Virus record (IMG/VR): IMGVR_UViG_3300045988_173571
Span: 1-41,745 of that record
Source of the DNA: a virus
Length of the DNA: 41,745 bases
Direction: 5' to 3' (one strand)
Shown: positions 1,493 to 22,426 of the stretch, piece by piece
How the letters are laid out: each line of letters starts with the position of its first letter
Numbering within the stretch: position 1 is the first letter of the stretch
The notes under the pieces: generated by a model
The model's input: only the letters and a program-made list of their open reading frames with translations
Told to the model about the DNA's origin: nothing
Databases searched by the model: none
Position numbers and translations under genes: made by a program

Positions 1493-1574
1493 CCTTACAT
1501 CTAATGTTTCTATTAATCAGATGAGCTGTAAATATTATAGCTTATCTTTGATTATCTATCAAGGAGGAGTTTTT

Positions 1575-4499: not shown

Positions 4500-5192
4500 T
4501 CAAAGTCCTTCATTTTTTAATAGTTCTAATGCATCAGCTTTTTCATTAATAAAACGATTTCTAAGACCTATTTTTACTACGTCATAGCTACCATTTGCCC
4601 AATCTTTGGGGCTGTGATAAGTACCTTTAGAAGTCATATATGCATTATCACATTCTTGGATCAGAAAATCATATATGCATTCAATCATTTCTCTATCAAA
4701 GCATTTATCATCTACCCAGCTAATCTCTGGGTGTCCCATAAGTCTTACTGCTTCTGTCCAAAGCTCATACATATTATTTGGGCCATATTGAATGGCACGA
4801 CTAAATAATACAGCTTTCATAGCTTCACTATGTTTGGTGATGTCATATTTACTATTTAATAGATTAAAATAACCTGCATTATAATACATATCGCCTGCAT
4901 ATTCGTCTTGCAGTTTGCCAAAACCTTCGGCGTCTATTGTACCGATAGATTTCCATTCATTTATAAATTCTCTTGAATTAACTGGATAGGCATTTTTCAG
5001 GACTCTGCCATAATTTGCATAGCAGTCTTCAGGGTAATTGCACAGCCATTCAACAAAATTTTCAACTACTCCTGCTTCACTGGAAAACTGATACCTTCCA
5101 TAAGATTTACCGCCTAAATCTCCGCTTCCTGTACTGACTGTTGCAGGATTGCCACCTGCTTCATACTTAAGTACCAATTGATTGTTTAACAT
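4500..5192 (-). CDS. Putative endolysin, lysozyme-like peptidoglycan hydrolase (VgrG3 C-terminal / chitosanase-like pattern)
   Basis: N-terminal YEAGGNPATVSTGSGDLGGKSYGRYQFSS fits the E-x-GG...GG-x-SYG-x-YQ catalytic-region pattern of that lysozyme-like family. RBS aggagtg. Sits in the lysis region. Confidence 0.65.
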   Translation of the reverse strand: MLNNQLVLKYEAGGNPATVSTGSGDLGGKSYGRYQFSSEAGVVENFVEWLCNYPEDCYANYGRVLKNAYPVNSREFINEWKSIGTIDAEGFGKLQDEYAGDMYYNAGYFNLLNSKYDITKHSEAMKAVLFSRAIQYGPNNMYELWTEAVRLMGHPEISWVDDKCFDREMIECIYDFLIQECDNAYMTSKGTYHSPKDWANGSYDVVKIGLRNRFINEKADALELLKNEGL

Positions 5193-5204
5193 TTTTCACA
5201 CTCC

Positions 5205-5282
5205 TAAATAAGAAAACCGCCACAATATTAAGTTATTAGTAGCGGTTTTTACTGTTACTGTATTAAGTTTCCAAAATGTAAA
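5205..5282 (-). promoter_or_regulatory. Late regulatory element, copy A: promoter-like TTTACA...AGTAAC followed by a leader hairpin and T-run, upstream of the endolysin
   Basis: Minus strand reads TTTACATTTTGGAAACTTAATACAGTAAC..AACCGCTAC-17nt-GTGGCGGTT-TTCTTATTT. About 70 nt are closely similar to 32880..32956. Confidence 0.55.
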
Positions 5283-5301
5283 TTTTAAAGTCTATACCTT
5301 T

Positions 5302-5766
5302 TTAATAAATAATATAATTTTTTGCTATATATTCATCAAATATTTTACCTTCTTCGCCATCAATGTCATTTAGATATACGGCTTTGGCAAAGTCAATATA
5401 GGTACGTATATCATTTTTAAATACGTTACCTGCGTCAGAATAGAGCATATTTAAAAGATAATACCAATCATATTTATTTACTTTTAAATTATTTTGTGTA
5501 GCTAGATTACTAGTCTGCTCTATGCTCCAATGCTCACCAAAAGAACCATCAAAATGTTTCATTTTTCCTACTGCTTCTTTGGCCATGTTTTCGCAAAAAT
5601 GTTTTCCATGTTTTAATACATGCAATTTTAAACTAATGCGGTTGTATGTGCCCTCGTCAAAATGTTTCATCATGCGTAGCATTTTACAAGATAACTCTAT
5701 CGCTTCATCTTTTTTATAATCATCTTGCAAAAGTTCTTCATATATTTTTTCACAATTTATTTTCAT
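5302..5766 (-). CDS. Hypothetical protein (154 aa), family of unknown function with a HWSIEQT...YDWYYLLNMLYSD motif
   Basis: RBS gaggaaa 6 nt before ATG 5766. The longer track start at 5793 would overlap the upstream gene. Confidence 0.6.
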   Translation of the reverse strand: MKINCEKIYEELLQDDYKKDEAIELSCKMLRMMKHFDEGTYNRISLKLHVLKHGKHFCENMAKEAVGKMKHFDGSFGEHWSIEQTSNLATQNNLKVNKYDWYYLLNMLYSDAGNVFKNDIRTYIDFAKAVYLNDIDGEEGKIFDEYIAKNYIIY

Positions 5767-5776
5767 TGTATTTTCC

Positions 5777-6208
5777 TCATGCCAATTTGACAATTACTAA
5801 ATCTGCTGTATTTACCGTTACACCTGTTGTTTGTACCTGTAATTGTACATTTACATTATTGGCTGTAGGCGTACATGGGCAAGTGCAAGGAACTTCAATT
5901 ATTGTTGTAATACTTGCCGTATATTCTGTTGCGTCTGCTGTTGTTACTGTAGCACTAGCACCTGCTATAGCATTATTATTATTTAATAATTGTAATGTTA
6001 CAGGTCCAGCAGCAGTCCCCAAAAGATTTGCATTAACTGTTACTAAATAAAGCCCTGCTTTTTGTAACGTTGCTGGAGTAGTTCCTGCTGTGAATGCTAT
6101 GCTTTGCCCTGTTACGTTAGCACTGGTGAAAGTAACCAAGCTATTAGCAGTCAATGCCTGTGCTGTAGTATTTATAGCATTTAATGTAGATTTTCGATAA
6201 CAAGTCAT
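5777..6208 (-). CDS. Stand-alone BclA C-terminal-like (C1q/TNF-like jelly-roll) domain protein
   Basis: 143 aa. TAQALTANSLVTF...AGLYLVTVNANL...VTLQLLNNN...TTIIEV...ADLVIVKLA parallels the strand pattern of the Bacillus exosporium BclA C-terminal domain. No collagen-like repeats. Confidence 0.6.
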   Translation of the reverse strand: MTCYRKSTLNAINTTAQALTANSLVTFTSANVTGQSIAFTAGTTPATLQKAGLYLVTVNANLLGTAAGPVTLQLLNNNNAIAGASATVTTADATEYTASITTIIEVPCTCPCTPTANNVNVQLQVQTTGVTVNTADLVIVKLA

Positions 6209-6226
6209 TATATTTACCTTCTTTCA

Positions 6227-6253
6227 TAAAAAAGAGCGGAGTTGCTCCGCTCT
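6227..6253 (-). terminator. Intrinsic terminator between the 205-aa and BclA-C-like genes
   Basis: Minus strand reads agagcggag-caa-ctccgctct followed by tttttta. Confidence 0.65.
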
Positions 6254-6279
6254 TAGTGGTGCAATCTATGCACAATTAT

Positions 6280-6897
6280 TTAGTTGAAACAGCCATTGCC
6301 ATAATAGCAAGAGTTTGGATTTGGTACATTATACGCAGGTATTGCTGTTGGTCGTACCTGTGCAATTATGTTTGCAGTTTGAGCCAAGTTGCTAAGCTGT
6401 CCTTGAGCTGATTGAAGCTGTAAGGAAAGGTCTGCAATTCTTTGGTCTTTTGCATTTGATTCCATTTGACAAAGTTTATCTAAGATATGTTGCGTATTTG
6501 CTGTAGCATTTGTTGTTATAGCACAAGTATTTTGTGCTGCTTCATATCTTACAGCATCTATATTACGATTTGTTTCACAGCAGCAAGCTTGAGCTTGATA
6601 GCCATTTTGTGCAAGTTGCATTTGTAAGTTTGAACCTGCCTGCCAAATATCTTTTTGTGTTTGAAACTGTTGATTTGCTACTTGAGTAAATCCAGTATTT
6701 AGTGTGTTATTTAAATTGCTATAAATAAAATCATTATTGATTGTATTCACACCACTATTTCCTAAGCCACCAATACCACCGCCACCACATAAGAGGATAA
6801 CTAAGAGTAATACCCATACGTTACCGCCCATGCCGTCATTATCTCGGTTCATTTCATAAACGGGGAGTACGCCACCGCCATTCATCATGTCTGCCAT
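6280..6897 (-). CDS. Membrane protein with a Gly-rich TM segment and a Cys-containing Q/N/A-rich helical ectodomain (CCCETNRN motif)
   Basis: 205 aa. RBS gaggtg 6 nt before the ATG. TM segment VWVLLLVILLCGGGGIGGLG. Cysteines at ACCCE, NTCAI, KLCQ and a C-terminal SCYYGNGC. Confidence 0.65.
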   Translation of the reverse strand: MADMMNGGGVLPVYEMNRDNDGMGGNVWVLLLVILLCGGGGIGGLGNSGVNTINNDFIYSNLNNTLNTGFTQVANQQFQTQKDIWQAGSNLQMQLAQNGYQAQACCCETNRNIDAVRYEAAQNTCAITTNATANTQHILDKLCQMESNAKDQRIADLSLQLQSAQGQLSNLAQTANIIAQVRPTAIPAYNVPNPNSCYYGNGCFN

Positions 6898-6971
6898 TTT
6901 TTACACCTCATTTGTGTATTTATTTATTAAAAATTTAGGTGTGCACTCCCCAAAGTTTTAATCTTAAGTTG

Positions 6972-7208
6972 TTAAGGCTTTACGCCCATTTGAGCTAACA
7001 TTTGTTGTAGCTGCTCTTGTGGTATTCCTTGTTTTTGTGCTAGTTGCATTACCATTTGTTGCATTTGCTGTGGGCTTTTTCCTTGTACCATTTGCATTAC
7101 TTGTGCATAGTTTGGATTATTCCCATACATACCTTGCAACATACCTAAAGGATTAGCATTACCCCTTAGTTGGTTCATCATTCCCATTATTTGCATTGGA
7201 TTTATCAT
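6972..7208 (-). CDS. Small Met/Gln-rich protein (78 aa; 14 Met, 18 Gln)
   Basis: RBS aaggtggt 7 nt before ATG 7208. A/T-rich third codon positions. Overlaps the 3' end of the upstream gene by 50 nt. Confidence 0.6.
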   Translation of the reverse strand: MINPMQIMGMMNQLRGNANPLGMLQGMYGNNPNYAQVMQMVQGKSPQQMQQMVMQLAQKQGIPQEQLQQMLAQMGVKP

Positions 7209-7638
7209 TTGTCATACCACCTTTTATATAATTTTCTAAGCTGATAATCCTGTTTTCTAATATCTTCACACTGTTTGTATCTGCGTATACAGGCAATTCA
7301 TTTTGCCCTAATGTATATACATTAATAATTGATTGAGCATTCATATCTATGGTTTTCGTATAGATGCAATTTTGAGCAGGGCAAGGAAAATAATGAGTAT
7401 TACCATCTGCTTCTATCAAGATTGCTTTCACTTCTTCAACGTTTGTTACCACTCGCCCCTTAAGTCCAGTAGGTATCATCTGCTGTTGATTTTGTGGTTG
7501 ATTAGTAAATTGTGTATTGACCTGCTGATATGGGTTCATCTGATTATAATTTTGTGGTTGTCGCTGTTGCTGTTGAAAATTAGGATTATAATATGGATTC
7601 ATATTTTGATTTTGATAAAATGGTGTATTCTCAAACAT
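7159..7638 (-). CDS. Protein with a Q/N/Y/P-rich prion-like N-terminus and a globular C-terminal domain
   Basis: 159 aa. 29 of the first 55 residues are Q or N. RBS gaggtgg. Confidence 0.7.
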   Translation of the reverse strand: MFENTPFYQNQNMNPYYNPNFQQQQRQPQNYNQMNPYQQVNTQFTNQPQNQQQMIPTGLKGRVVTNVEEVKAILIEADGNTHYFPCPAQNCIYTKTIDMNAQSIINVYTLGQNELPVYADTNSVKILENRIISLENYIKGGMTNDKSNANNGNDEPTKG

Positions 7639-7671
7639 CTTGCCACCTCATTTCTTTAATTTAATTATAGA

Positions 7672-7764
7672 TGAAAAAATAAAGGCTAAAGTGTCGATAA
7701 AGCTTATAGTTTATGGGGTTTAAACCGTCATAAATCTGTAAAATTTATCTACTCTTTAGCCTTT
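7672..7764 (-). other. Structured intergenic element: 11-bp closing stem enclosing ~62 nt, followed by a T-run
   Basis: aaaggctaaag (7681-7691) pairs with ctttagccttt (7754-7764). Inner stems ataaat/atttat and ggttt/aaacc. Minus strand continues attttttc. Confidence 0.35.
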
Positions 7765-7767
7765 TTA

Positions 7768-8016
7768 TTATATGAATTTACTTTTTATCAGCGACTTACT
7801 TATAAGGTCATAGCTTCTTTTAATGTCTCTCTGGATTGTTTCTTCAGATAGGTTCATCATTTGAGCTATTTTCACTATTTCTATATTCTTAAGTATTCGC
7901 AGTTCTATTATTTTTTGCTGTCTAGGAGTAATCTTCGCATGATATAAGATATCTTCAAACGCTTGTCTATCTGCATTTATAAGCCAGTATCTGGCATTTT
8001 TTCTATTTTTATCCAT
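7768..8016 (-). CDS. Sigma-70 region-4-like HTH protein (82 aa), probable late-gene transcription regulator
   Basis: ITPRQQKIIELRILKNIEIVKIAQMMNLSEETIQRDIKRSYDLI matches the region 4 (LTPRQREV..L..S..EIA..LG.S..TV) pattern. No regions 2 or 3. Confidence 0.7.
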   Translation of the reverse strand: MDKNRKNARYWLINADRQAFEDILYHAKITPRQQKIIELRILKNIEIVKIAQMMNLSEETIQRDIKRSYDLISKSLIKSKFI

Positions 8017-8029
8017 GACCTTATTCCTT

Positions 8030-8479
8030 TTATTTTCTCATCACTTTATCATCAGCGAATTGTGCCAGTTTATCCTTGAATTTTTGGGGTACTGGTACAC
8101 CACAATTTGCTACATTTTCTAATATAGATAATCCCTCGTTTCCTAAGTAAAATAATGCAATAATATTGCGAGTCAAATCGTTTTGACCAATAGCATTATC
8201 AAAGAAGTGGCCAAGCATGACCATGATTAAAATTACGCCTTTTCGCTTTAATCCGTTCCAACCTTTTCTGCTGTCTAGCTTTTTGTGAGGATTTATCCAT
8301 GCAGACATGACCCCTGTTATATAATCAAAAAACATAAATACAATCAAAGTTTCTAAAAGCGGGGACCATTGCCCTAAAAAATAATTAACCACAGTACCAC
8401 AAAAAGCCACTATAACACCTACTTCTATTTCTAATCTTACTGGTATCAATGATTTTAAAAATATACTAAGCTCCTGCAT
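8030..8479 (-). CDS. Holin (Phage_holin_4_1 / Hol44-like, 3 TM)
   Basis: FDYITGVMSAW...SRKGWNGLKRKGVILIMV...GNEGLSILENVANCGVPVP is characteristic of this Firmicutes phage holin family. gaggtg lies 6 nt before ATG 8479. Confidence 0.8.
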   Translation of the reverse strand: MQELSIFLKSLIPVRLEIEVGVIVAFCGTVVNYFLGQWSPLLETLIVFMFFDYITGVMSAWINPHKKLDSRKGWNGLKRKGVILIMVMLGHFFDNAIGQNDLTRNIIALFYLGNEGLSILENVANCGVPVPQKFKDKLAQFADDKVMRK

Positions 8480-8498
8480 TTTCATCACCTCATTATCA

Positions 8499-8579
8499 AC
8501 TTTACTTTTTAGCTAAATCTACACACCTACTTTACTTTTAAAGTCAAGTAAATGTATAGATTTTTGCAAAAAGTAAAGT
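8499..8579. repeat. Three copies of the 11-mer ACTTTACTTTT (two direct, one inverted) upstream of the holin gene
   Basis: Copies at 8499-8509 and 8529-8539 (direct, 30 bp apart) and 8569-8579 (reverse complement). A related AAAAGTAAAG is at 32960-32969 next to late element B. Confidence 0.5.
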
Positions 8580-8583
8580 AAAC

Positions 8584-8883
8584 TTAAAATTCCTTTTTAT
8601 ATAGCGGTATCACTCCGCCCAAAACTGTAGCACCGATATCCGATTTACTGAATGTATCATCTACCCATTTTTCTTTTGCATAAGCAAGAAATGCCACTGT
8701 TGCCACCGCTTCAAGCTTACTCATGCCTGCATGTTGAAGTTCATTAGATATTACATAGCCAACACCAAAATGAGCAAATTTATCTGTACCTATATCATCT
8801 TGTATATCATGAAGGCTACTAGCAAAGCATGATATACAAGATGATATTAATAACATTGTCAGTATAATTATTTTTCTTAACAT
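8584..8883 (-). CDS. Small lipoprotein (99 aa)
   Basis: Strong RBS aaaggagag before ATG 8883. Signal peptide MLRKIIILTMLLISSC with a lipobox-like ISSC. The mature part, DKFAHFGVGY...KE..D, is reminiscent of YfiM/DUF2279-type lipoproteins. Confidence 0.6.
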   Translation of the reverse strand: MLRKIIILTMLLISSCISCFASSLHDIQDDIGTDKFAHFGVGYVISNELQHAGMSKLEAVATVAFLAYAKEKWVDDTFSKSDIGATVLGGVIPLYKKEF

Positions 8884-8897
8884 TATTCTCTCTCCTT

Positions 8898-10931
8898 TCA
8901 AGCGTCTGCTTGCCATGAAGCAATTCTTGTCCATCTTTTAAATGTTATACTATTATTAAAACCTAGACCATATCTTACATATAATGTTATTGTTTGGTCT
9001 GTTTCTAGAGTGTAAGCTTTTTGTAAAATATAAGCTTGGTTATTATTCCATGATTGAGGGGAACGTACTACTTCTAGCATTGTGTTTACATTTTTAGGAG
9101 CATTTTGTGCTGAAGGAAGCATAAAATAAGTACCTTCATATATAGCGTTATTAGCATTATCTATGCCTTGTGATTTTAGTCTATGCCAATTATCAAAAAA
9201 GGCATTATCGTTATTGTTACCAGCTATAGTTGTTGCTACAAAGGTGTAACTATTATAATCTGGAGTATCTGCTTTAACTACTTTAGCATTAGCGTTTTTA
9301 GATGTAAAAAAATAACTACCTATATCTGTAACTCTAGCACCATTATTTAAGACATATATAGCACCGCTATCAGTATCAGCTAGGTGGAAGAAGCAATCCC
9401 TAGTCCATACATCTACATGACTACTATCTGTGTTTTGTGTATTTATAACTCTTATAGCATATTGCGTTGTATCTGCATAACAACGAGTAAACACTGTACC
9501 AAAGCCTAGTGAAGCATTATCTGTATTATCTATCTCTGCTAGACAGCTATCTGTTACTATACCGCTATCAGGTAGTAACCAGTGGTGCATATTTGTCACC
9601 ATTGTTTTATCTCTTAGATAAATCCCCTTATGAACCCCTTCACTAAATATGTCCGTGAAAAAATTGTCGACATTACCGCAACGAATGGAAGTAGAACCAG
9701 TCCATTCTGTAGTATTTTTAAAGTACATATTATTACCTCTAAACCAATAAGAAGGTATATTATTTGGATTTGTATGCACTCCATAAAGCTTAAAATTTCT
9801 ACATGACACATCTTGATAAGAAAAGTAATTATAACTACTTGCTCCAAAACAACACTTAGCTTTATCATTGGCATCTAAAATACCACCTATAATACTACCA
9901 TTCCATTTAGTAGTCCCCCACCTACCAAGACGCACTAGATATTCTAAGTCCTCCGTGTTTGTAAATATTCTTGCGTTTTTTTCCATTCTTATACTACGTG
10001 GAAAATCTGTACTTGTTTCCAAAGTTTCAGATATTAGGTAATCACCATCAGGAAAATAAGCTGTTATACCTTTTATATAAGGGTTACCTGTCAAAAATAT
10101 TTTATTCTTTAAGACATTTGTATCATCATGGACGCCATCTCCGTATGCACCCATTTGTTTAACATTTAAAACGTCTTGTATTATTAAGTATGCATATAAT
10201 CTTTTTTGTAAAGTTATAATACTAGCTTCATCAGCTTCATCTTCACCTATATTATCTGTTATTAAATAATCAGCTCCACCACCATCATTTGGTTGATAGA
10301 AGCCTTGTGTTTTTATCAATCCTCCTGTTTTTAGATTATTGGCTTGCTTCATGCTCTCTACATTCGGGAAAGTTCGTATATTTATTGATTGAGCATTAGC
10401 ATTAGCATTTTGTGCATACTCTTGTGCTTCATTTGCTGATTGCTGGGCATTTTGTGCGGATTGGTTAGCGTCTGCTACGTTTTGTTTTATATCAGTCAGC
10501 AGTTCATCTGGTTTTACTTCACTGCCCATATCTACTTTTACAGAACGTTCAAGGGCTTCTTTCATCTCTTGGGATATCATGGTATTTTTATCTGTTCCAT
10601 TTTCTACAAAAGGCAGTGGATATTTAGAGCCAAAATCTATTTCTTGTGTTAGTGGTGTTTGTCTGTAAACTACTAACTTTTGATTTGCTTGTAGTACTGG
10701 TGGTATCTGTGCTTCTGGTGGTTCTTGTCCGCTTTGATATCCAGGATAAATCACTTCGTTTTTCTCACTGTCTACGAAAAAATCTTTAGTGAGTTCTGTT
10801 TGTACTTGTGTATCTATATCATAAATAGCCACATGTATATGTGCTTTATCGTTATATTTGAATTTGAATGGGAAATGGGTTGTCTGCCCATTCCCTACAT
10901 AGATAACCTTTGTTGTTTGGTCTTGTATCAT
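8898..10931 (-). CDS. Tailspike / tail fiber with a pectate-lyase-type beta-helix domain
   Basis: 677 aa. NVKQMGAYGDGVHDDTNVLKN matches the GA.GDG..DDT motif of Pectate_lyase_3 tailspikes. Has an N-terminal virion-attachment-like domain and an Ala/Gln/Asn coiled segment. Confidence 0.8.
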   Translation of the reverse strand: MIQDQTTKVIYVGNGQTTHFPFKFKYNDKAHIHVAIYDIDTQVQTELTKDFFVDSEKNEVIYPGYQSGQEPPEAQIPPVLQANQKLVVYRQTPLTQEIDFGSKYPLPFVENGTDKNTMISQEMKEALERSVKVDMGSEVKPDELLTDIKQNVADANQSAQNAQQSANEAQEYAQNANANAQSINIRTFPNVESMKQANNLKTGGLIKTQGFYQPNDGGGADYLITDNIGEDEADEASIITLQKRLYAYLIIQDVLNVKQMGAYGDGVHDDTNVLKNKIFLTGNPYIKGITAYFPDGDYLISETLETSTDFPRSIRMEKNARIFTNTEDLEYLVRLGRWGTTKWNGSIIGGILDANDKAKCCFGASSYNYFSYQDVSCRNFKLYGVHTNPNNIPSYWFRGNNMYFKNTTEWTGSTSIRCGNVDNFFTDIFSEGVHKGIYLRDKTMVTNMHHWLLPDSGIVTDSCLAEIDNTDNASLGFGTVFTRCYADTTQYAIRVINTQNTDSSHVDVWTRDCFFHLADTDSGAIYVLNNGARVTDIGSYFFTSKNANAKVVKADTPDYNSYTFVATTIAGNNNDNAFFDNWHRLKSQGIDNANNAIYEGTYFMLPSAQNAPKNVNTMLEVVRSPQSWNNNQAYILQKAYTLETDQTITLYVRYGLGFNNSITFKRWTRIASWQADA

Positions 10932-10933
10932 CT

Positions 10934-13900
10934 TTAATATCTCCTTACGTTCTTAGATTTCCCCTTTTTCTTTGGTTGTTTCGGTTTTTCTGGTATCACT
11001 CTTTCTACTGGCTTTTTATTAAAGAGTGCAGACCAAATAATATTTTTAAGGTTCGTATCATATCGACCATCACCATCAGCTATATATTGCATAGTGGTGA
11101 AGACACTATTTGCCATGGTACTTGTTATACCTGTTCTAGCTGCAAAAAATGTTGTACCTATTTCGCCTGTAGCTTTTGCTATATCTGCATAGGTTATGCG
11201 TTTTGGTGGCTTTTGGTACTGTTTATCTTCAAGCATGGTCTTTCTTTTCTTTGCCCCTGCCTTCATATATTCAGCTTGCCATTTAGCTTCCTTATCTGCT
11301 ATCTCTAAATCTTTTTCTGCTTTTTTATCTAGCAGTTTATATAGTGCAGTTATCTTTTCACCGCCAGCAAGTGCCACATTAGAAAAGCCAATACCTCTAC
11401 CATAATCTGTACCTTCAAAACTTTCATTGATAAAAAAGCTTGCTATATCTCGTACACCCCACATAGTGCCAGCCATAGTGGATAAAGTATTTTTGCCAAA
11501 CTGTGTCAAAAATCTTTGCATTGCAGGTATCTCTATTTTTTCTTCTGTACCCTCTGCATTTTTCACCTTTTCATATTTATGCTTATCATCATTTCCATCA
11601 CCGAGCAGTGCCATACGTAGCATAGTAGATAATGCAGAAGTAAGCACAATACGATATAGAAAAGACCTTGCCACAGGTAGCCACCTTGTAATATTTTCAC
11701 CCATTGTAGTCGGCTTCATAAATTTTCCTTTATAGTAAGCTTGCAAGATAGCATTAGCCTGCGTATTAAAGAAAGTGTAAAAAGGTGTAAATAATTTCAG
11801 CAACTCTCCACCTTTTTGGATAGATGCTAAATCTTTTGTCTGTCCACTTCCGAATACTTCACGAATAGATTTATCAGCTTCAGCAATGGAACGACTTTCA
11901 GCTTCAGCCAAGATTTCTTTATCTGTTAAGAATCTAAGCTCACTCGCATTATCTAGCTCTACTTCCGCCATATATAAATCTTTTTGTAGTTGATTTAATT
12001 CTTCTCTTGTATTTACAAAAGTCTTAAAATCCCCCACTTGATTTATATTTGTACCTTGCACATCAAAATTTGATTTCAATGCATTTTGTTGCAGGTCCAT
12101 TATTCTAGCTCTGATTGTAGATACCTTAGCTTGTGCATTTTGCAATTTTTCTACATTAGCTTCATTTTCTTTTTTTACCTCATTAAGTTTTTTAGCATAG
12201 GCATCTTTATAGCTTCTACACCATAACGGAGCAGAAAACATCAAATCACTATAGGTCATAAGTGTGTATGCATGTTCTTTTAAAAATCCTGTTACTAATC
12301 TATCTTCATCAAATAATCCCGGAATGTATTTTATATCCCTGTCCATATGATTTAGCCTATTCTTCATAAAGATTGATTTATGCAACACTTCTTGATATTT
12401 ACTTATATTTGTATAGTAATCTGCTATTGCTACTAAAGATTTCATAGCACCTAATTTATCCATCATTGGTGCAATGTTGGTCATATTTTCAATTATTGGA
12501 TAAAGTCTATATCCCATTATTGCAAATGTGGAATTTGTTCTTAAATAGCTAAGCATTTTAGACACTTTTTGCACTGTTTTATTATTACTAGCTTCTGGTA
12601 TCACTCGCCAATTATCCACTGCCCATTCATCTAATACCTGGTATATTTCTTTACCCATAGTTCTATTTACATATTCTTCAAATTGTTTATTTTTTACTAA
12701 TCTATAAACATCTCTTGCTGGTATTCTATGCGTTATATTGTGGATTACATTTGATAAATGGTCAGGTATTACACTAAATTCTAAAAGCAACGCTCTATCA
12801 ATATTTGCCTGTGAACGTGCCTTTGTAAATCCTCTGCCAGTGCCTAATACTTGTGCACCGCTCATAGTACGTCTTACCGCTTCATTTACCTCTTGTTCAT
12901 TGGCTCTATTGCTCTTTAGTGGATTAGCTACTATAGGATAATAGCCACCTTCTAAATGCAATATCTCGCCATCAGGTAACTTCACATCAAATGGTGTTGG
13001 CTGTTGCGGTTTTAGTGTTACGCCGTTTAATTCTTGCTCTACCCTTACTGTATCTTTCCAGAAAGAATGTAAATGATTCCATATATCTTGTACCATTTGC
13101 CAATCCTTTTTGGTCATATGCTTTTCAACAAATTCTTTGAGATATTCTTCTGTCAAGCCAAATCCTACAGCAAGACGGCTTCTATTTATATCATTACCTA
13201 GGTTTAGAGCCATACAGATAATATTTTCTTTTGATAGATTTTCTACTGTACCATCTTCAAATTCCAATTTATACTGCTGTTTCTTCCATGATAATTTTTC
13301 ACTATGGCTATAATCTTTTAAAATTTCTTTTATCTTATATACGTTTTTGGTCATCATTTCAGCTTCAAGATTAGATGCTCGCTCATACGTTTCATACAGA
13401 TATTTATGAGCTTTTGTTCCCAAAATATTTATTATTTCTTCTGGTTTCATCATGGAACTTAAATATTTTGCACCGCCACGAGCCATAGCGTCCCCAATAA
13501 GTGGTATCTTATCCACTAAATCGTTATAGCCAAGACCGCCTTTATCTGGATTTATCTTTTTATTTATTACCATTGACCTGTTATAAGCAGTATCATCAAG
13601 TATTATTTCATTTATAGCATCATCTATAGATTTCCCCTGTATAGTTTTTAGCTTGAATTTATCTCTACCTGTTGTATATAAGATATCTAGTGCTTCCACT
13701 GCGTCCTCGAATTGGGCTATAGTCATAGATTGATAACCGCTGAAATCACTACGGCTTGTTATCTCTAATATATCTGTTGGGGTATATTCTAAATCCAAGC
13801 TGTCTTGTAATCCCTTGAATAAATCTGCAAGTGGTGTTATTCCGTCTACAGGTGGATTAGCATCTTTATTTGTGATACCTAAGATATAGGCTAAATGTTT

Positions 13901-16900
13901 ATGCCAGTATCGTTCTTGTGCTGGTAATTTTATGGATCGTACTTTTAGCTGTTTATTCACCTTCTCTATTTTCTTTTGTATATACAATTTATTTTTCAAT
14001 GCCTTTTGAGCCATAGCAGCAGAAATATACTGTGCTTCTTTTTCTTTCATGGCACGCTCCCAGTTACTAGCCTTTACAGCTTGTTTTACTCTGCGTGCAT
14101 GCATACTTTCATTCTTACGATAAAGAGCTACATTACAAGCTTCAAAAATAGTTTTGCCGTCCAAAGCACGCTCTGCCATTTCCTTGAACATTTTCAATTT
14201 ACCTTCATGGGCTTTTTCTATGGCTTCACGATTTATCTTTTGCTGTTTTGTTTCTTCTACAAATTGTTTAAAAGCTTCAGCTAAAGTTTCTTTTGTATTG
14301 CTATTAAACATTGCTTCAATTTTTCCTAAATCTTTGGCATTCCATTTAGTGCTAAATCTAAGCTTATTCAAAGCGTTCATCACATTTTTTACTCTAGCAT
14401 CTTCTTTATCTACTTTTAAATCTGTGTAATCATCAAGGGCATTTAATTTATCTTCTACATCTTGCATAGCAACTTGCGTTTTAGAGCCTATTTTATTTAT
14501 CAATTTTACTTTTTCATTAAATATCCTAGTTTCCATTGCCACAAGTTTACTTGTATACTTACTATCTTCCATAGCCTGCAAGATATTTTCTTCGGATAAA
14601 TGGCTTTCCATTAGTTCAGTATCTAAAGTTTTTTCATACTGCTTCATGTATTCATCAAGTGCAGTCTGTATAGGCTTAGTATTTTTTAGGGCCTGTTTAT
14701 ATTCTTCTACGCTACCAAACCAATTAAGAACTATATTTATATCTCCTGCTTCTTTATAAGCTTCTTGAGCTATATATACAGGTTGATTTTCTAATTCATT
14801 TAGTTTATAAGCTCGCTCTTTTTCTACACGTTCATCAAATTTTGCTTTGGCTTCAGCTTTTAAATCTTGCATTACTATCTTCATTAAATGCTCTTTGGCT
14901 TCTTCTGTAGCTTCCTTGTGCCAACGTTTATAAGTTTGTTCTTCCGTTTCATCAAGTAGCTTTTCACCGCCTGCCTTAGTGATATCTCTATATCTATCAT
15001 CTAATGCCATTTGATTTATTTCTTCTTCTGTAGCCACCATACGTTGCATTATGGCTTCTACTTTTGAGCTTGCTACTCCGCCAATAGAAGTAAATCCAAT
15101 ATAGATATCACGCAAGAATTTTTTAAACTTACGGAACACATCTTTTAAGCCTTTACTTGGTGCAGTTCCTTTTTGTAAATATAATTCAAATGCCCTTGCA
15201 AATCGTTCTTGTCGCCATGCTTCTTTTAATTCTTCCACTTTGGCTACATCACCAGCATTTTTAGCATTTATTATACTTTCATGACGTGCTTTAAATTCTT
15301 TGTACCATGGAGCATTTTTATATTCATCAATGGATTTTTCATTTTTCCAACTTGCCCAATCATTTACTATATCCAATTCTTTTTTAGATAATTCATCAAT
15401 CTTAGCAAGCTCATCTAAATCCATTAAAAACATATGTGCCATTTCATGTACAAAAGTTGATTCATCAGCAGATTTATACAGATTGATAACACGCTGACCA
15501 TTACTCAATAAAGTGATATCACCTTTTATATTGGCAGTAGTTTCATTTTTTATTTTTTGTACCTTTTTCTGTACTACTTTTTTATTTTTTTCTTCTACTT
15601 TTTCAGCAGTTTCTTGTATGATATTTACTTCTTTATTGGTTAATTTAGGTGCTTCTTTTTTTGCTGTTATAATTACTTTCCCATCACTGCTAACAATTGC
15701 ATTTTCATCATGAATAGTTGGTTTATTTAATAGATTATAATCTCCTCTACCTACTCTATTAGCAGTTTCCCTTGCTTCTTGTTCACCCCCTAAATTCATA
15801 TAAACTTCTATATCATCTATTTTTTGCAAGTCCCAATATAACTTTGCTTTTTCAAATTTTTCTAAATCAGCATTTTTTAATGCTTCAAGTTCACTTGTTC
15901 CCTCTTTTCTCAAGTTTTCACTTTGAGCTTTTGATTTCCAAAAAGCACTATTATATGCTTTTATTTCCTTCAATACTTCATCATAAAGTTGGTCTAAAAT
16001 TTCTTGCTTAGAATTTAAATTTCCGCCACCTGCAAACCCTTCTATTTTCTGAATTAAGTGTTGTATTTCATGTACGATATTAATTTTCATTTTATCTGTA
16101 TCTACATTCAATCTATCATTTATTACTATTACACTTAATTTTTTGCCATTAATATCTACATCTCTAGCACTAGCTTGATGTTCTATACTTTTACTTTTTT
16201 CTTTTAAGACTAATATATCTCTAAGTTGTGGATAGGCTTCATATAGTTTTTCATTCTTATAAATCTTATCTAATGAAATAGAATTTGTTTCATCAAAACT
16301 GTTTGCTAAAGTTATATTATTTATTTTTTCGAGAGGTTTCATATCAAATAATTTAGTATCATCAGGTATTTCAAATCTCCATTTATTATCTTTTCCTTTT
16401 ACCCAACCTGTATATTGCCAAATTACCTCATCAGTATATTCACCCTCTGCATCTAATTGCTTAGCTATTTTTAATTGTTCAATGTTTTTATTTAGTGCCT
16501 TTTCGCCTGCAAATTGTTTATATGTTCCTTTTCCTTTTACAGTATTTAGAGCAAATCTTTCATTGTAATAAGTCATGGCTGTGTAGTTTTCATTGCCATG
16601 TCTTCGCATTATGTCTGCCACTATATCTGCATGTCTAGCAAATAAAATAGCACTCATACGGCTTGCACGTTTTACTTTTCCGCCAGCATTTTGAAGTTGT
16701 TTTGATAGGCGATTATATACTGCATATCCGTCTTTAGTAAGTCCTTCAGCCAACCTCATTTCTACACCATTTAAATTGCTAAGCTGTGGTTTTATCTCAT
16801 CTAATACCTTCAAATTATTATCTATATCATCTAGTATATTTTTATTTTCAGCCAAAGCTTGCACAGCTTCAGGAGTTGTTGCTTGCCATGTTGGTATAGA

Positions 16901-19405
16901 TGGTGCTGTTTCATCTCCTACAGTTAATTTATAAGCCATATCTTCAATTTCTTTATCAGTCATGGCTCTGTTATGTTTAGCATAGAATTCCTGATACCAT
17001 GTATCATTTTGTTCTATGCTCTTTTTTATGGCATCTATTGCAGGCACTAAAATATTATTTCTTTCATTTATCTGGTCATCACGGACTTGTTTCCAACCTT
17101 TAGCTGGATTAGATACATTATTGTAAATTACAGCTTGTGCCATAGTCTGCTGTTCTTTTGTACCATTTGCAAATTGTTCTTGCATTATGGCATCTATCAG
17201 CATACGTTGCTTATCTGCTGTTTTTTGTATACTATCTTGCATTTCACTTGTTATAGTTTCAGCATTTTTTCTTAGCTTGCCGATTGGATCTGCTTCTTGA
17301 TTGAAAGTTACAGCACGCATGATATCGCTTGTAGTTTCCGCTTGAGCAAATTTCGCTGTAGGAATTGCAAGCGTTCCACCTATTTCAATAGCTGTTTTTA
17401 AATCTTCCTGCGTATATCCTGCTGTCTTTGCCAATGTTTCAAGGTCTTGCTTTCCTGTTTGACTTTCAAGTGCTGTAGGTATATCTACATAAGCCATTTC
17501 AAAACCTGTATTATCCAGTTGGCTACGCAACAATCTTTCTTGTACCTTTGGTGCTGTCTTTTTTAATTTGCTATTTCTAACAGCAGATTGTAATCTTTCT
17601 AACATCAGTGTACCTGCGAAAGTTTGTCTAGTGCTTTGCTCCAATTTAGCATTATTACTCATCAATCTTTTTAGATTGCGAGAAAATCCCAAAGACTCAT
17701 TGAAGCCACCTACTCCAGCAGATATCACACCAAAGCCAATAGCTCCTGGTAGTGCTTCGCCTGCACTCATCAAAGCACGCTGTGCAATCTCTGTAGCTGT
17801 ATATACTCTATTTGTAGTATCGCCAGTATCTTGCATTATTTGATTGTGTACCAAATCATCAGATATTGATTGCAAACCTTCTTCGCCACTTTCCGCCATA
17901 GATACCTTAGCTATTGCACTTGCTCTATTAGTGAAGAAAGATTTTATACCTTCTTTGGCTAGTGCTTGTTTTTGTGCTGTAGCGATAATTTCTTTTACAG
18001 TCTGCTTGGCTACGTTGCCTGTGAATGCGTCCTTGATTAAACCAAAATCTAGCATTTCAATACCAGCATTTAATGCACCTGCTACTACTGCATAATCTTG
18101 AGCTGCTTCATCTGAAAGTAGTGGCTTTCCATCTTCGCCTTTCAAGTCTTTGAATTCTGCATAATATCCGCCAGTTGCAGGCTTTGCCATACCTGCAAAC
18201 ATTCCATATCTTGCTAGATATCCACCTGTTAATCTTGCTCCTTGCATAGCTCCTTGTCTTATGGTATTTGTCCTTATAACATTTAAAATACCACCACCGA
18301 CTGCACCTGCTAAACTACCACCTACATTACCTATTACAGGAACAGCTGAACCTGCTAAAGCACCTGCTACCATACCTGCACTAGCACCTATAGCAAAATC
18401 ATCTATCATCTCGCCCATAGACTGTATCATCATTGGCATAGAGCCAGCCACTCCGCCTGCTATTACAGCAAATGGATTATCTAAAAATGCAGGTAGATTT
18501 GGTGCTTGTTCTAATTGTTTTTTTAATTCATCAATGCGAGCCTTATCTTCTTCCGTTGCCTGCCCTGTCATTAATTTATAATTTAAATTGCTATATTCAA
18601 GATGTTTATTTCCGTACTCCCACATTTTATTAAAAGAGTCAATGACTCCCTGCGTTTCTCTTACGCTATTAATATCATGTAGAGCTAGTGCAGCTGATTG
18701 TGCGTCCATACTAGCTATATTTTTTAATTCTGGAAATTCATTAAATACATCATTCATATCTCCGCCAAGTTCTTTTTTCTTCTTAGCGTAGTTATAAATC
18801 TCAATGGCTTCACGATATGCAGTAGTATCATTTAAAAACTCTTTGGCTTTTATGCCTGTTTCATTTTCAATCTCAATGGCTTTTTGAAGTTTTTCCTCAT
18901 CAGTCATCATGTAATTTACATAGGCATTGCTCTCTTGTATTCCCTGTGCTACATCTTGCAATATGCTTTCATTGTCATCACTATAGCGATTTACAATGGC
19001 ACGGCTTACTTGTTTTAATGGTGAATAAATAAGTTCTTGCCCTGCCTGTTGTAAATTTTCTACAGCTTTATTTTGAAAACTATAATCGCCTGTTTCATTT
19101 GCTTGATTAATATTTGCTGTAGTATATGCTCCAGTAATATTTCTTTGCTCATCTAAAAAATTATGATAAGCATTGTTGATATCACTAGCTGTATTTACTA
19201 CTAAATCTATCCCTTGCCCTGCTGTTTGCAGTGCGTCCTGTGCAATTTCTGTAGACTCTTGGGCTACTTGTCTATTTATATCAGATTGATTTGTTACTAC
19301 TTCGCCAATCTGTTCAAATATGGATTTTTCTTCTTCAGGTGGCTGTTGCTTTTCTGCTACCTTTTTATTTACTAAATCACTAAATTTATTTACGTCTAAA
19401 GCCAT
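10934..19405 (-). CDS. Giant (2,823 aa) internal virion / DNA-ejection protein with polyvalent-protein features and two zincin HExxH motifs
   Basis: Single uninterrupted ORF with RBS taggagt. HEIQH at residue 1112 (nt 16058-16072) and HEMAH at residue 1320 (nt 15434-15448). Gly/Ala-rich hydrophobic segments around residues 310-385. Occupies the T7 gp16 position. Confidence 0.9.
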   Translation of the reverse strand: MALDVNKFSDLVNKKVAEKQQPPEEEKSIFEQIGEVVTNQSDINRQVAQESTEIAQDALQTAGQGIDLVVNTASDINNAYHNFLDEQRNITGAYTTANINQANETGDYSFQNKAVENLQQAGQELIYSPLKQVSRAIVNRYSDDNESILQDVAQGIQESNAYVNYMMTDEEKLQKAIEIENETGIKAKEFLNDTTAYREAIEIYNYAKKKKELGGDMNDVFNEFPELKNIASMDAQSAALALHDINSVRETQGVIDSFNKMWEYGNKHLEYSNLNYKLMTGQATEEDKARIDELKKQLEQAPNLPAFLDNPFAVIAGGVAGSMPMMIQSMGEMIDDFAIGASAGMVAGALAGSAVPVIGNVGGSLAGAVGGGILNVIRTNTIRQGAMQGARLTGGYLARYGMFAGMAKPATGGYYAEFKDLKGEDGKPLLSDEAAQDYAVVAGALNAGIEMLDFGLIKDAFTGNVAKQTVKEIIATAQKQALAKEGIKSFFTNRASAIAKVSMAESGEEGLQSISDDLVHNQIMQDTGDTTNRVYTATEIAQRALMSAGEALPGAIGFGVISAGVGGFNESLGFSRNLKRLMSNNAKLEQSTRQTFAGTLMLERLQSAVRNSKLKKTAPKVQERLLRSQLDNTGFEMAYVDIPTALESQTGKQDLETLAKTAGYTQEDLKTAIEIGGTLAIPTAKFAQAETTSDIMRAVTFNQEADPIGKLRKNAETITSEMQDSIQKTADKQRMLIDAIMQEQFANGTKEQQTMAQAVIYNNVSNPAKGWKQVRDDQINERNNILVPAIDAIKKSIEQNDTWYQEFYAKHNRAMTDKEIEDMAYKLTVGDETAPSIPTWQATTPEAVQALAENKNILDDIDNNLKVLDEIKPQLSNLNGVEMRLAEGLTKDGYAVYNRLSKQLQNAGGKVKRASRMSAILFARHADIVADIMRRHGNENYTAMTYYNERFALNTVKGKGTYKQFAGEKALNKNIEQLKIAKQLDAEGEYTDEVIWQYTGWVKGKDNKWRFEIPDDTKLFDMKPLEKINNITLANSFDETNSISLDKIYKNEKLYEAYPQLRDILVLKEKSKSIEHQASARDVDINGKKLSVIVINDRLNVDTDKMKINIVHEIQHLIQKIEGFAGGGNLNSKQEILDQLYDEVLKEIKAYNSAFWKSKAQSENLRKEGTSELEALKNADLEKFEKAKLYWDLQKIDDIEVYMNLGGEQEARETANRVGRGDYNLLNKPTIHDENAIVSSDGKVIITAKKEAPKLTNKEVNIIQETAEKVEEKNKKVVQKKVQKIKNETTANIKGDITLLSNGQRVINLYKSADESTFVHEMAHMFLMDLDELAKIDELSKKELDIVNDWASWKNEKSIDEYKNAPWYKEFKARHESIINAKNAGDVAKVEELKEAWRQERFARAFELYLQKGTAPSKGLKDVFRKFKKFLRDIYIGFTSIGGVASSKVEAIMQRMVATEEEINQMALDDRYRDITKAGGEKLLDETEEQTYKRWHKEATEEAKEHLMKIVMQDLKAEAKAKFDERVEKERAYKLNELENQPVYIAQEAYKEAGDINIVLNWFGSVEEYKQALKNTKPIQTALDEYMKQYEKTLDTELMESHLSEENILQAMEDSKYTSKLVAMETRIFNEKVKLINKIGSKTQVAMQDVEDKLNALDDYTDLKVDKEDARVKNVMNALNKLRFSTKWNAKDLGKIEAMFNSNTKETLAEAFKQFVEETKQQKINREAIEKAHEGKLKMFKEMAERALDGKTIFEACNVALYRKNESMHARRVKQAVKASNWERAMKEKEAQYISAAMAQKALKNKLYIQKKIEKVNKQLKVRSIKLPAQERYWHKHLAYILGITNKDANPPVDGITPLADLFKGLQDSLDLEYTPTDILEITSRSDFSGYQSMTIAQFEDAVEALDILYTTGRDKFKLKTIQGKSIDDAINEIILDDTAYNRSMVINKKINPDKGGLGYNDLVDKIPLIGDAMARGGAKYLSSMMKPEEIINILGTKAHKYLYETYERASNLEAEMMTKNVYKIKEILKDYSHSEKLSWKKQQYKLEFEDGTVENLSKENIICMALNLGNDINRSRLAVGFGLTEEYLKEFVEKHMTKKDWQMVQDIWNHLHSFWKDTVRVEQELNGVTLKPQQPTPFDVKLPDGEILHLEGGYYPIVANPLKSNRANEQEVNEAVRRTMSGAQVLGTGRGFTKARSQANIDRALLLEFSVIPDHLSNVIHNITHRIPARDVYRLVKNKQFEEYVNRTMGKEIYQVLDEWAVDNWRVIPEASNNKTVQKVSKMLSYLRTNSTFAIMGYRLYPIIENMTNIAPMMDKLGAMKSLVAIADYYTNISKYQEVLHKSIFMKNRLNHMDRDIKYIPGLFDEDRLVTGFLKEHAYTLMTYSDLMFSAPLWCRSYKDAYAKKLNEVKKENEANVEKLQNAQAKVSTIRARIMDLQQNALKSNFDVQGTNINQVGDFKTFVNTREELNQLQKDLYMAEVELDNASELRFLTDKEILAEAESRSIAEADKSIREVFGSGQTKDLASIQKGGELLKLFTPFYTFFNTQANAILQAYYKGKFMKPTTMGENITRWLPVARSFLYRIVLTSALSTMLRMALLGDGNDDKHKYEKVKNAEGTEEKIEIPAMQRFLTQFGKNTLSTMAGTMWGVRDIASFFINESFEGTDYGRGIGFSNVALAGGEKITALYKLLDKKAEKDLEIADKEAKWQAEYMKAGAKKRKTMLEDKQYQKPPKRITYADIAKATGEIGTTFFAARTGITSTMANSVFTTMQYIADGDGRYDTNLKNIIWSALFNKKPVERVIPEKPKQPKKKGKSKNVRRY

Positions 19406-21673: not shown

Positions 21674-22426
21674 TTACCACCCCATAAGATTTAAATTCTG
21701 ATTGAATAATTTATTCTTCTTATTATTAAAAGCAGTATTTCCGCCAAAATAATTTACTGTAGCACTTGTTTGCGGTGTCATGCCTGTTTGATTTGTACCA
21801 GAATAATAATCTATTGCCATGTTTGTTCCTGCACCAGCTGTATTTGATTTACCAGTATAATAATTTATCGCCATGTTCGTTCCTGCACTGGTAATAGCTC
21901 CTACAGCATTACTGCCACTACTTGCTTTTTTCCATGGTTGTTCTATGCCATAGATACTAGCAGCAGTCCCCAAAAGTGTCGGAAGCCATGAACTTTTTGC
22001 TTGGCTTTTTACATTTGAAGCTGATGCTCGCATAGCGTTTGCCTGATTTAGATAATTTGTCTGTGCTACACGGCTTGCATAATTATCATTTCTTTGATTA
22101 TTCAATAAATTAACTTGGTCTTGATTGTATGCTTCTAGTCCGCTAGATAATATATCCATAGAGCTTCCGCTAAAATCTAAACCTGATGCACCTGTTTGAG
22201 CTCTTTGGGCTCCTTCAGATAAACGCTGTCTTGCTCTTAAGCGTCTAGCTTCTTGAGCATAATTATCTGCAATCTGCTCTTGTTTTCTAGCTTCTACTCT
22301 TGCATTTTGTTCAGCTACTTGTGCTTGTGCATTATAAGCTTGTGCTTGTGCGTCTGCTATTTGTCTATTTTGTCTATAGCCTAAATATCCACCAAGAGCT
22401 GTAAGTCCTGCCATTACACTACACAT
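21674..22426 (-). CDS. Putative internal virion/ejection protein (N-terminal TM, Ala/Gln coiled region)
   Basis: 250 aa. Lies in the T7 gp14 position between the nozzle and the large ejection proteins. Confidence 0.55.
   Translation of the reverse strand: MCSVMAGLTALGGYLGYRQNRQIADAQAQAYNAQAQVAEQNARVEARKQEQIADNYAQEARRLRARQRLSEGAQRAQTGASGLDFSGSSMDILSSGLEAYNQDQVNLLNNQRNDNYASRVAQTNYLNQANAMRASASNVKSQAKSSWLPTLLGTAASIYGIEQPWKKASSGSNAVGAITSAGTNMAINYYTGKSNTAGAGTNMAIDYYSGTNQTGMTPQTSATVNYFGGNTAFNNKKNKLFNQNLNLMGW

Follow-up and report, generated by a model that had tools for sequence, protein, structure and literature searches.

A 2,823-residue Bbp10-type polyvalent protein of a human-gut podovirus, with a predicted core zincin and an optional zincin cassette

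The giant gene and its genomic setting

The IMG/VR virus record IMGVR_UViG_3300045988_173571 was analysed over its whole length of 41,745 nucleotides (nt), hereafter called the window, and the subject of this report is a giant open reading frame (ORF) on its minus strand. The window ends share an identical sequence, an exact 55-nt direct repeat at positions 1-55 and 41691-41745; the window is therefore a circular assembly of a complete phage genome of 41,690 bp. The ORF (Table 1) begins with ATG and runs through 2,823 codons with zero internal stops, and its 8,472 nt account for 20.3% of this unit, as had been claimed in a first-pass annotation made from the letters alone (a single uninterrupted frame over about 20% of the genome). 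Its product of 2,823 amino acids (aa) holds two HExxH motifs, at exactly the residues 1112 and 1320 named in that annotation; the protein's own histidine and glutamate content would give a chance expectation of 0.035 such motifs. From the sequence comparisons described below, the two surrounding modules appear to evolve differently: zincin-2, the second, as the core of the protein, and zincin-1, the first, as swappable cargo.

The genes on the same strand are ordered portal, scaffold/protease-like, major capsid, tail tube A, tail tube B, internal virion protein (IVP; phrog_308), a second IVP (phrog_418; Pfam T7_gp14), a 751-aa lysin, the giant ORF, and the tail fibre. This is the T7 order gp13-gp14-gp15-gp16-gp17, with the giant ORF in the place of gp16, and synteny thus bears out the earlier proposal that it occupies the position of the largest internal virion protein. 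The T7-like setting proposed with it stands for the gp16 position but not for the phage itself, which belongs to the epsilon15/BPP-1 structural group of podoviruses and is not T7-like proper. This follows from the portal, which is nearest (32-35% identity) to those of Cobetia phage Carin1, Pseudomonas phage HU1 and epsilon15-like phages, from one small protein with a Bbp19-like domain, and from the replication genes: the window genome encodes neither an RNA nor a DNA polymerase of phage type but a module of a Rep-like protein (PF23343 REP_ORF2-G2P, 6e-17; window 36480-37382, minus strand) and a ParA/AAA_31 ATPase (6e-42; window 40707-41423, plus strand). With these plasmid-like replication and partition genes the element may be a phage-plasmid. 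No near-identical DNA was found among cultured phages, and a contig scan of representative bacterial genomes for prophage relatives, made for host inference, found none.

Unlike T7, where the gp16-position protein carries them, the muralytic domains of this phage are on the 751-aa neighbour; on the giant ORF, Pfam gave no muralytic match and no N-terminal lytic transglycosylase domain.

Table 1. Coordinates in the window of the giant ORF, its predicted parts and the adjoining virion genes
Feature	Coordinates	Strand	Evidence
Giant ORF, 2,823 aa, probable polyvalent internal virion (ejection) protein, gp16/IVP-D position	10934..19405	(-)	synteny; intact in relatives
N-terminal scaffold, aa 1-954	16544..19405	(-)	kept in L005 (40% identity) and L006 (23% identity; blastp); collinear with the N-termini of Bbp10, AF_016, SR18 and MZH0603
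Divergent LPD22-like region, about aa 169-260	18626..18901	(-)	aligned by hhalign with Bbp10 aa 41-138 (LPD22 by Pfam)
Gly/Ala-rich hydrophobic region, aa ~300-460, candidate membrane-inserting segment	18026..18508	(-)	glycine-zipper-like spacing
Accessory cargo cassette (predicted), LPD23 + zincin-1, aa ~955-1284	15527..16543	(-)	blastp and blastn junctions; absent in L002, L003, L004
LPD23 (PF18838), aa 964-1017	16355..16516	(-)	Pfam, E=1.2e-18
Zincin-1 putative active-site motif, H1112-E-x-Q-H1116-x-x-Q-x-x-E1122	16040..16072	(-)	fully conserved in both A1 and A7
Zincin-1 second conserved helix, G1207-E1208-Q-E1210-A-R1212 ... R1217, candidate third metal ligand	15755..15787	(-)	invariant in A7
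Zincin-2, predicted constant core metallopeptidase (CLCA_X-type), aa ~1285-1460	15026..15553	(-)	kept in all relatives
Zincin-2 HExxH, H1320-E1321-M-A-H1324, with invariant S1316-T1317 before it	15434..15448	(-)	fully conserved in both A2 and A8
Zincin-2 second conserved helix, E1400-R-F-A1403-R1404-A-F-E1407-L-Y1409, candidate third ligand E1400	15179..15208	(-)	A8
C-terminal scaffold, aa ~1740-2823, largely helical	10937..14188	(-)	phrog_9880; tblastn/blastp to cultured phages; alignment A4
Basic C-terminal tail, last 30 aa	10937..11026	(-)	12 K/R vs 2 D/E
gp15-position protein, 751 aa, virion muralytic; Glucosaminidase (3e-9) and weak NlpC/P60	19415..21670	(-)	Pfam
Internal virion protein B, T7_gp14 family	21674..22426	(-)	phrog_418; PF24072 T7_gp14
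Tail fibre/spike directly downstream of the giant ORF	8898..10931	(-)	PHROG tail fibre matches; weak pectate-lyase-like match

Scaffolds shared with the Bbp10-type family

A tblastn search against cultured phages finds homologues of 22-27% identity from about aa 1306 on: Bbp10 of BPP-1, gp16 of Pseudomonas phage AF, gp40 of Caulobacter phage SR18 and their relatives, and proteins of Vibrio, Xanthomonas, Nostoc and Microcystis podophages. By blastp the window protein matches Bbp10 at 1.4e-41, and phrog_9880, for which a function is not given in PHROGs, matches aa 1739-2409 (E=3e-138). The stretch of about 1,400 aa from zincin-2 to the C-terminus is helical and ends in the basic tail, which is common to L005 and in part to L006 (the two more distant of five related IMG/VR contigs, L002-L006) and is not present in the distant cultured homologues. 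The N-terminal part was compared by hhalign, with alignment A5 (window aa 1-954 together with L005 and L006) set against alignment A6 (the N-termini of Bbp10, AF_016, SR18 and MZH0603); the two match with a probability of 96% and E=3e-9 over 471 columns, window aa 169-728 being paired with Bbp10 aa 53-521. LPD22, which Pfam also recognises in cultured homologues, is not directly detected by Pfam in the window protein.

Judged by these alignments, the window protein is collinear end to end with the Bbp10-type family and is a new, divergent member of it from the human gut. It resembles the family (AF gp16, SR18 gp40, Vibrio MZH0603 QGT52254; PHROG 9880) in the position of its gene after IVP-A, IVP-B and a structural lysin, and in the order of N-terminal scaffold, cargo site, core zincin and C-terminal scaffold; in the inspected cultured genomes that show the upstream genes, the homologue comes after the IVPs and a structural lysin of about 540-760 aa. 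Besides its low identity, it differs in some 160 extra N-terminal residues, an LPD22 that Pfam does not recognise, a length of 2,823 aa against 1,902-2,213 aa, the basic C-terminal tail, and the phage that encodes it, which is a low-GC (guanine-plus-cytosine) phage of the human gut with a Rep/ParA module; its host is probably a human-gut bacterium that is likewise low in GC.

The first-pass annotation had also listed a Gly/Ala-rich segment, long helical regions and a basic C-terminal tail, and all three were recovered. Glycine and alanine make up 36% of aa 301-400, an uncharged run of 41 residues spans aa 337-377, and aa 300-460 contain 13 [GAS]xxx[GAS]xxx[GAS] patterns against an average of about 2.8 per 160 aa. 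Similar uncharged runs are found in L005 (aa 219-263) and Bbp10 (aa 216-261), and from its composition we infer that the region may be membrane-active. As to the helices, the AlphaFold2 model of aa 1290-1760 is nearly all helix.

Two side observations concern the scaffolds. The giant ORF of L004 has a different in-frame insert of about 119 aa (its aa 1607-1725) in the C-terminal scaffold, between window aa 1937 and 1950, which is 32% identical to window aa 1336-1428, in the helices that follow zincin-2; this may mark a second site that tolerates insertions. In epsilon15 (L013), gp16 (8670-10571) aligns non-significantly with the N-terminal scaffold on the motif SYQD.[RK]..G[LV], and gp16 together with gp17 (10574-13327) may represent a split form of the giant protein lacking both cargo and zincin.

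An accessory cassette at a fixed junction

Exactly the zincin-1 segment is missing from three sister contigs: L004, and also L002 and L003, which encode giant proteins about 98% identical to that of the window. Window nt 15527-16542 have no counterpart in the sisters' DNA, and both flanks are 96-98% identical. The junction is in frame: the sisters read YYNERFALN directly followed by IK, and the window reads YYNERFALN, then TVKGKGTYKQFAGE, the module and IKNETTANIKGDITLL. The GC content of the cassette is 27.8% against 33-36% in the flanks, and its GC content at third codon positions is 13.6% against about 21%; this foreign composition favours acquisition in the window lineage over deletion from the sisters.

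More distant relatives fill the same place differently. At the junction L005 (46% identity) has a weak LPD3, LPD23 with zincin-1, and ART-PolyVal, L006 (26% identity) has LPD3 and ART-PolyVal, and the three sisters have nothing. Directly upstream of the core zincin, Bbp10 carries PBECR1 (a predicted RNase), AF gp16 carries LPD23 with zincin-1, and SR18 gp40 carries ART-PolyVal; in MZH0603 Pfam recognises no cargo at this place. Ahead of the metagenomic relatives of zincin-2 stand MuF_C, ART-PolyVal, LPD3 or an LPD23-zincin, and the relatives of both zincin modules occur in proteins with LPD3, ART-PolyVal, MuF_C and SprT-like domains. In nine diverse representatives zincin-1 comes before zincin-2, with 147-682 aa between them, and the number of residues after zincin-2 is about 1,500-1,570 in six of the nine (1,503 in the window; full range 1,257-2,586). 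Taken together, the alignments point to the junction directly N-terminal to the core zincin as a fixed cargo site across the family, one that is polymorphic between genomes of about 97% identity.

The metagenomic origin of the window, and the fact that the cassette is missing in the closest IMG/VR relatives, might suggest an assembly artefact, in which the giant ORF or its cassette arose from fused genes or a chimeric insertion. This is effectively refuted. The identical 2,823-aa protein is present on five contigs from independent assemblies, made with different assemblers from different samples (human gut run ERR589863 among them). The junctions keep the reading frame, cultured phage AF and L005 show this order of domains too, and the giant ORF is uninterrupted in all five related contigs, with sizes of 2,489, 2,492, 2,599, at least 3,206 (running off the contig end) and 2,964 aa. 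The frameshifts that the first-pass annotation had thought might interrupt the ORF in independent assemblies were not found there, and mis-assembly and frameshift are therefore excluded.

One candidate boundary was rejected. The cargo could have been inserted within the zincin-2 fold, with the segment ILFARHADIV...YYNERFALN as the first elements of that fold, but no conserved counterpart of this segment precedes zincin-2 in Bbp10, SR18, MZH0603 or Nsp-JY18.

The homologue of Nostoc phage Nsp-JY18 (L010; coding sequence to 8852) has 4,012 aa and is annotated as lysin. Some 1,700 aa lie upstream of its core zincin with no Pfam match, and these may hold cargo domains that have not been described.

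The sisters L002-L004 are 96-98% identical to the window over the structural genes. The C-terminal part of the tail fibre gene (window ~8896-10190) has no DNA match in them, and the lysis/accessory region (window 4321-8896) is only about 82% identical. By this comparison the receptor-binding module has been swapped along with the cargo cassette.

Zincin-1 and LPD23

LPD23, found in a domain-wise Pfam search, is the only significant Pfam domain in the window protein, and a search of NCBIfam gave nothing. The zincin-1 motif at H1112 lies in VHEIQHLIQKIEGFAGGG. Its family comprises 5,732 cluster representatives (HMMER, E<=1e-3), mostly giant proteins and some with up to ten matched stretches. In 232 instances taken from 148 representatives, HExxH is kept in 231 and HExxHx5E in 226, and 175 of these 226 have a downstream GExE[AS]R at variable spacing. 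A trimmed alignment of 25 diverse copies (A7) is invariant at the motif in H1112, E1113, Q1115, H1116, Q1119, E1122, F1124 and G1127, and downstream in Y1202, G1207, E1208, E1210, R1212 and R1217. We take the HExxHx5E spacing to mirror the HExxHx5H of Wss1/SprT-type proteases, with E1122 as an alternative candidate for the third ligand.

All 25 copies match LPD23, and the HExQH motif always comes next. In the AlphaFold2 model of zincin-1, positions 11-175 are confident and form one globular unit, in which three strands (116-147) are followed by the HExxH helix (154-173). Because it is always followed by the motif, and is one unit with it in the model, LPD23 is best read as the N-terminal subdomain of a metallopeptidase-like domain and not as an independent domain. 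Secondary Pfam matches among the 25 copies are to DUF6782 (8 of 25, best 5.6e-8), Peptidase_M78/IrrE (4) and eCIS_core (2), with one copy each matching M91, YgjP-like, WLM and SprT-like; apart from stray matches of single members to GrpE and PRTRC_E, these are families of metallopeptidases or effector proteases. SprT-like is above the Pfam cut-off in L005 and in P0023.

The protein P0023 (L001 10001-12403, on a 43.8-kb contig) was considered as part of a related phage and rejected, being alone among bacterial housekeeping genes. It is an 800-aa truncated polyvalent fragment (LPD23, zincin-1, LPD3, a partial ART and the start of zincin-2) beside a HicA toxin, and has the look of a decayed remnant, not of a prophage.

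At the N-edge of LPD23 a motif phi-x-Q-[FM]-A-G-E (window aa 962-968, nt ~16502-16522) is present in 57 of 178 instances, and the occurrences at this edge are more than half of all its occurrences in those proteins. In many relatives a similar [FY]-x-Q precedes the first zincin-2 strand by 8-15 residues. These are candidate processing sites, and it may be at such phi-x-Q motifs, recurring at module boundaries, that the core zincin cleaves.

Zincin-2, the constant core

The HExxH of zincin-2 begins at H1320, in FVHEMAHMFLMDL. Over 17 diverse members with identities down to 21% (alignment A8), S1316, T1317, H1320, E1321 and H1324 are invariant, as is E1400-x-x-A-R-x-x-E1407-x-Y1409 downstream. 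The motif is at position 797 in Bbp10, 1007 in AF_016, 783 in SR18 gp40 and 648 in MZH0603, and is also present in Nsp-JY18. In the AlphaFold2 model of zincin-2 the motif is in helix 26-45 and the second conserved helix lies within helix 98-123, with two short strands only. Zincin-2 is probably a processing peptidase and, from its conservation, the constant core of the family.

Window aa 1306-1546 align with Bbp10 aa 783-1019 (E=1.4e-13), and Bbp10 aa 700-1000 served as a seed of the CLCA_X zincin family (Lenart et al. 2013, PMC3650047). Profile-profile comparison tied CLCA_X, as a sister, to the CLCA_N protease domain, and its members were found mostly in long proteins of phages, prophages and plasmids (PMC3650047). 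Zincin-2 is thus homologous to a seed of CLCA_X; it differs from the published consensus HExxHxxxD in reading HEMAHMFLMD, with Asp at +5 and not +4 (Bbp10 has Glu at +4), and its best-conserved downstream acid is E1400 in the helix E-R-F-A-R-x-F-E.

At the level of motif and family both modules appear zincin-like. The first-pass annotation had asked whether the HExxH motifs might lie in non-conserved positions without the third ligand or the zincin fold. Both motifs are invariant in sequence, each with an invariant downstream Glu helix, and invariant Glu residues are available as candidate third ligands in zincin-1 (E1122, E1208, E1210; the downstream helix is of low confidence in the AlphaFold2 model) and zincin-2 (E1400, E1407). 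The zincin fold, on the other hand, was not confirmed by structure search. Foldseek of the two AlphaFold2 models against the Protein Data Bank (PDB), in which long helices dominate, gave no significant match (best E=0.4 and 1.3), and against BFVD the zincin-2 model re-found only its own uncharacterised family. A PDB sequence search with the whole protein and the profiles A1, A2, A4, A7 and A8 found nothing significant; the profile matches, to the active-site helices of M1 aminopeptidases and IrrE, reached only E=0.85-2.7. Pfam zincin matches among zincin-2 members are sporadic and below threshold, and hhalign relates zincin-1 to zincin-2 with a probability of only 20%, in register over the strand and HExxH helix. 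These results weigh against reading the two modules as active zincins, and they leave room for domains that are catalytically dead, structural or metal-binding, and kept for packing or scaffold geometry. We hold this to be very improbable: the catalytic Glu and both His residues are invariant over hundreds of copies of less than 50% identity and are joined by a second invariant acidic helix, which is the pattern of an active enzyme. Inactive homologues usually lose the general base.

Comparison with known systems

The likeness to polyvalent proteins that the first-pass annotation had noted is borne out by LPD23 (E=1.2e-18) and by cultured homologues that combine LPD22 with PBECR1, ART-PolyVal or LPD23. 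The window protein shares with polyvalent proteins a giant multidomain build, a place among virion genes (from IVP and lysin to tail fibre), LPD domains and zincin-like metallopeptidases (MPTases), and its relatives combine ART-PolyVal, PBECR1, LPD3 and MuF_C. MPTases are a hub domain of such proteins and are predicted to process them (Iyer et al. 2017, PMC5512222); like polyvalent proteins with more than one MPTase hub, the window protein has two HExxH modules, as judged by motif and family. Its arrangement of LPD23-zincin-1 followed by zincin-2 is that of phage AF gp16. A difference is that the window copy has no enzymatic head other than a protease, its sole cargo being the second MPTase.

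Bbp10 has been listed as an IVP-D (T7 gp16) homologue in the epsilon15 subgroup, a link made only through chained family hidden Markov models (HMMs) (Hardies 2016, PMC4819975). As gp16, ejection and internal virion proteins all go unmentioned in the text of Iyer et al. 2017 (PMC5512222), it is to Hardies et al. that the explicit link of polyvalent proteins to the IVP-D scaffold is owed. We assign the window protein to IVP-D because of its synteny and the chained-HMM result for Bbp10 (PMC4819975). It is like T7 gp16 in gene-order position, large size, helical character and a presumed core or ejectosome role; it is 2.1 times longer, has zincin domains and no N-terminal lytic transglycosylase, and bears no detectable sequence similarity to gp16. 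Two further proteins, phi24B gp47 and N4 gp50, are likened to it by description and not by sequence; both exceed 2,800 aa and contain LPD and peptidase domains. The former, a polyvalent protein of 2,811 aa, was detected in phi24B virions, is packaged in a podovirus virion and has been proposed as an ejection protein (bioRxiv 10.64898/2026.04.10.717836); in the latter, the cargo, a virion RNA polymerase (vRNAP), is embedded in an IVP-D homologue. Unlike the window protein, gp47 has LPD5, LPD1, LPD38 and MuF-C, and the cargo of N4 gp50 is an RNA polymerase. For the AF gp16 homologue the Ab31/AF paper reports no virion proteomics.

Proposed role

We consider it likely that the giant ORF encodes an internal-core (ejection) protein of a gut podovirus of the epsilon15/BPP-1 group, namely a Bbp10-type polyvalent IVP with a processing core zincin and with zincin-1 as cargo. 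What the sequence itself shows is its anatomy, its family membership, the invariance of its motifs, the polymorphism of its cargo and its context in the virion module; packaging, ejection, autoprocessing, proteolysis and the identity of a target are drawn by analogy with T7-type internal core proteins, after Hardies et al. and Iyer et al. The giant protein would be packaged in the capsid core with the gp14-like protein and the 751-aa lysin and, at infection, be ejected through the tail. The Gly/Ala-rich segment and the helical scaffolds may help to form a trans-envelope conduit, and the central bay would reach the cytoplasm. Zincin-2 would then cut the polyprotein in cis and free the cargo, and the freed zincin-1, an accessory protease, would attack a target of the host or of a competitor early in infection. 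Cytoplasmic delivery of an effector is favoured because zincin-1 is optional and because ART and RNase domains sit in the same bay of relatives, and IVPs have been said to host domains destined for the cytoplasm (PMC4819975). For the packaging of a giant polyvalent protein in a virion, phi24B gp47 is a precedent. Both zincin modules had been put forward as injected proteases in the first-pass annotation; that suits zincin-1, which behaves as swappable cargo, and does not suit zincin-2, the constant core and probably a processing peptidase.

Some points count against this picture, in addition to the structure searches above. N4 vRNAP, ArdC and TraC1 carry MPTases and are nevertheless delivered unprocessed, so that autoprocessing is not a given (PMC5512222). 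Hhalign comparisons with T7 gp16 and with epsilon15 gp16 and gp17, each as a single sequence, are not significant, at probabilities of at most 0.4% (alignment A4 against T7 gp16, 0.3%; against epsilon15 gp17, 0.2%).

It seems unlikely to us that the zincins act only in virion morphogenesis, trimming the giant protein, or other proteins of the core, either before packaging or within the capsid, with no host target after injection. P1 DdrB is cited as cleaved before encapsidation and in-capsid processing has been suggested for N4-like proteins (PMC5512222), and a zincin-2 that stays constant whatever the cargo, even in the cargo-less MZH0603, fits such a housekeeping role. However, the gain or loss of an optional zincin between 98%-identical phages would then go unexplained, as would the presence in the same bay of ART-PolyVal and PBECR1, whose predicted substrates are cytoplasmic.

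Muralytic domains are common in IVPs (PMC4819975), and an envelope role was proposed for the metallopeptidase domain of phi24B gp47 (bioRxiv 10.64898/2026.04.10.717836); one or both zincins might accordingly clear the way for the conduit by acting on peptidoglycan peptides, on lipoproteins or on a periplasmic barrier. In our phage this is quite improbable, as the 751-aa neighbour already has the muralytic Glucosaminidase and weak NlpC/P60 domains, the sister phages manage without zincin-1, and the weak Pfam affinities of zincin-1 are with M78/IrrE, SprT/WLM, DUF6782 and M91. These are cytoplasmic or effector-type families and are not known to be cell-wall peptidases.

The likely role as an ejected polyvalent IVP can be extended to a wider proposal, which we regard as speculative and, taken as a whole, rather doubtful: that the bay is a hot-swappable effector site in the ejection protein of the whole podovirus clade, that co-circulating gut phages of near identity differ only in having or lacking the accessory LPD23-zincin there, that this zincin is an injected protease disabling a specific host defence or a factor of a resident prophage, and that the cargo sets host range at the level of the strain.

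The concept of polyvalent, virion-borne proteins is already in print (Hardies 2016, PMC4819975; Iyer 2017, PMC5512222; Lenart 2013, PMC3650047). What the present analysis adds is the fixed and polymorphic cargo junction, the placing of LPD23 within a metallopeptidase-like domain and the distinction between core and cargo HExxH modules, each as read from sequence; none of these overturns current views, and the locus is of value not as a discovery but as a well-resolved example. The giant internal virion proteins belong to the most poorly understood proteins of phages, and their routine labels are "hypothetical", "coil containing" or "crystallin motif"; a better annotation for the Bbp10/AF gp16 family is suggested by the domains described here. 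Phages of about 97% DNA identity that differ by one in-frame protease cassette of 330 aa, at the site where relatives carry ADP-ribosyltransferase or predicted RNase domains, amount to a natural experiment. They make it testable whether the ejection proteins of podoviruses deliver optional effectors and whether a constant zincin releases them.

Other genes of the window

On the opposite strand a 583-aa ORF (window 1521-3272, plus strand) is made up of 4-5 internal repeats, each some 144-168 nt long, in which a GKKFNMLTVLEE-like motif recurs; it has no Pfam match. A 230-aa protein (window 4500-5192, minus strand) with a C-terminal domain like that of VgrG3 of the type VI secretion system (1e-31) is probably the endolysin. 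In the identical contig L014 a holin (Phage_holin_4_1) is encoded near the tail fibre gene.

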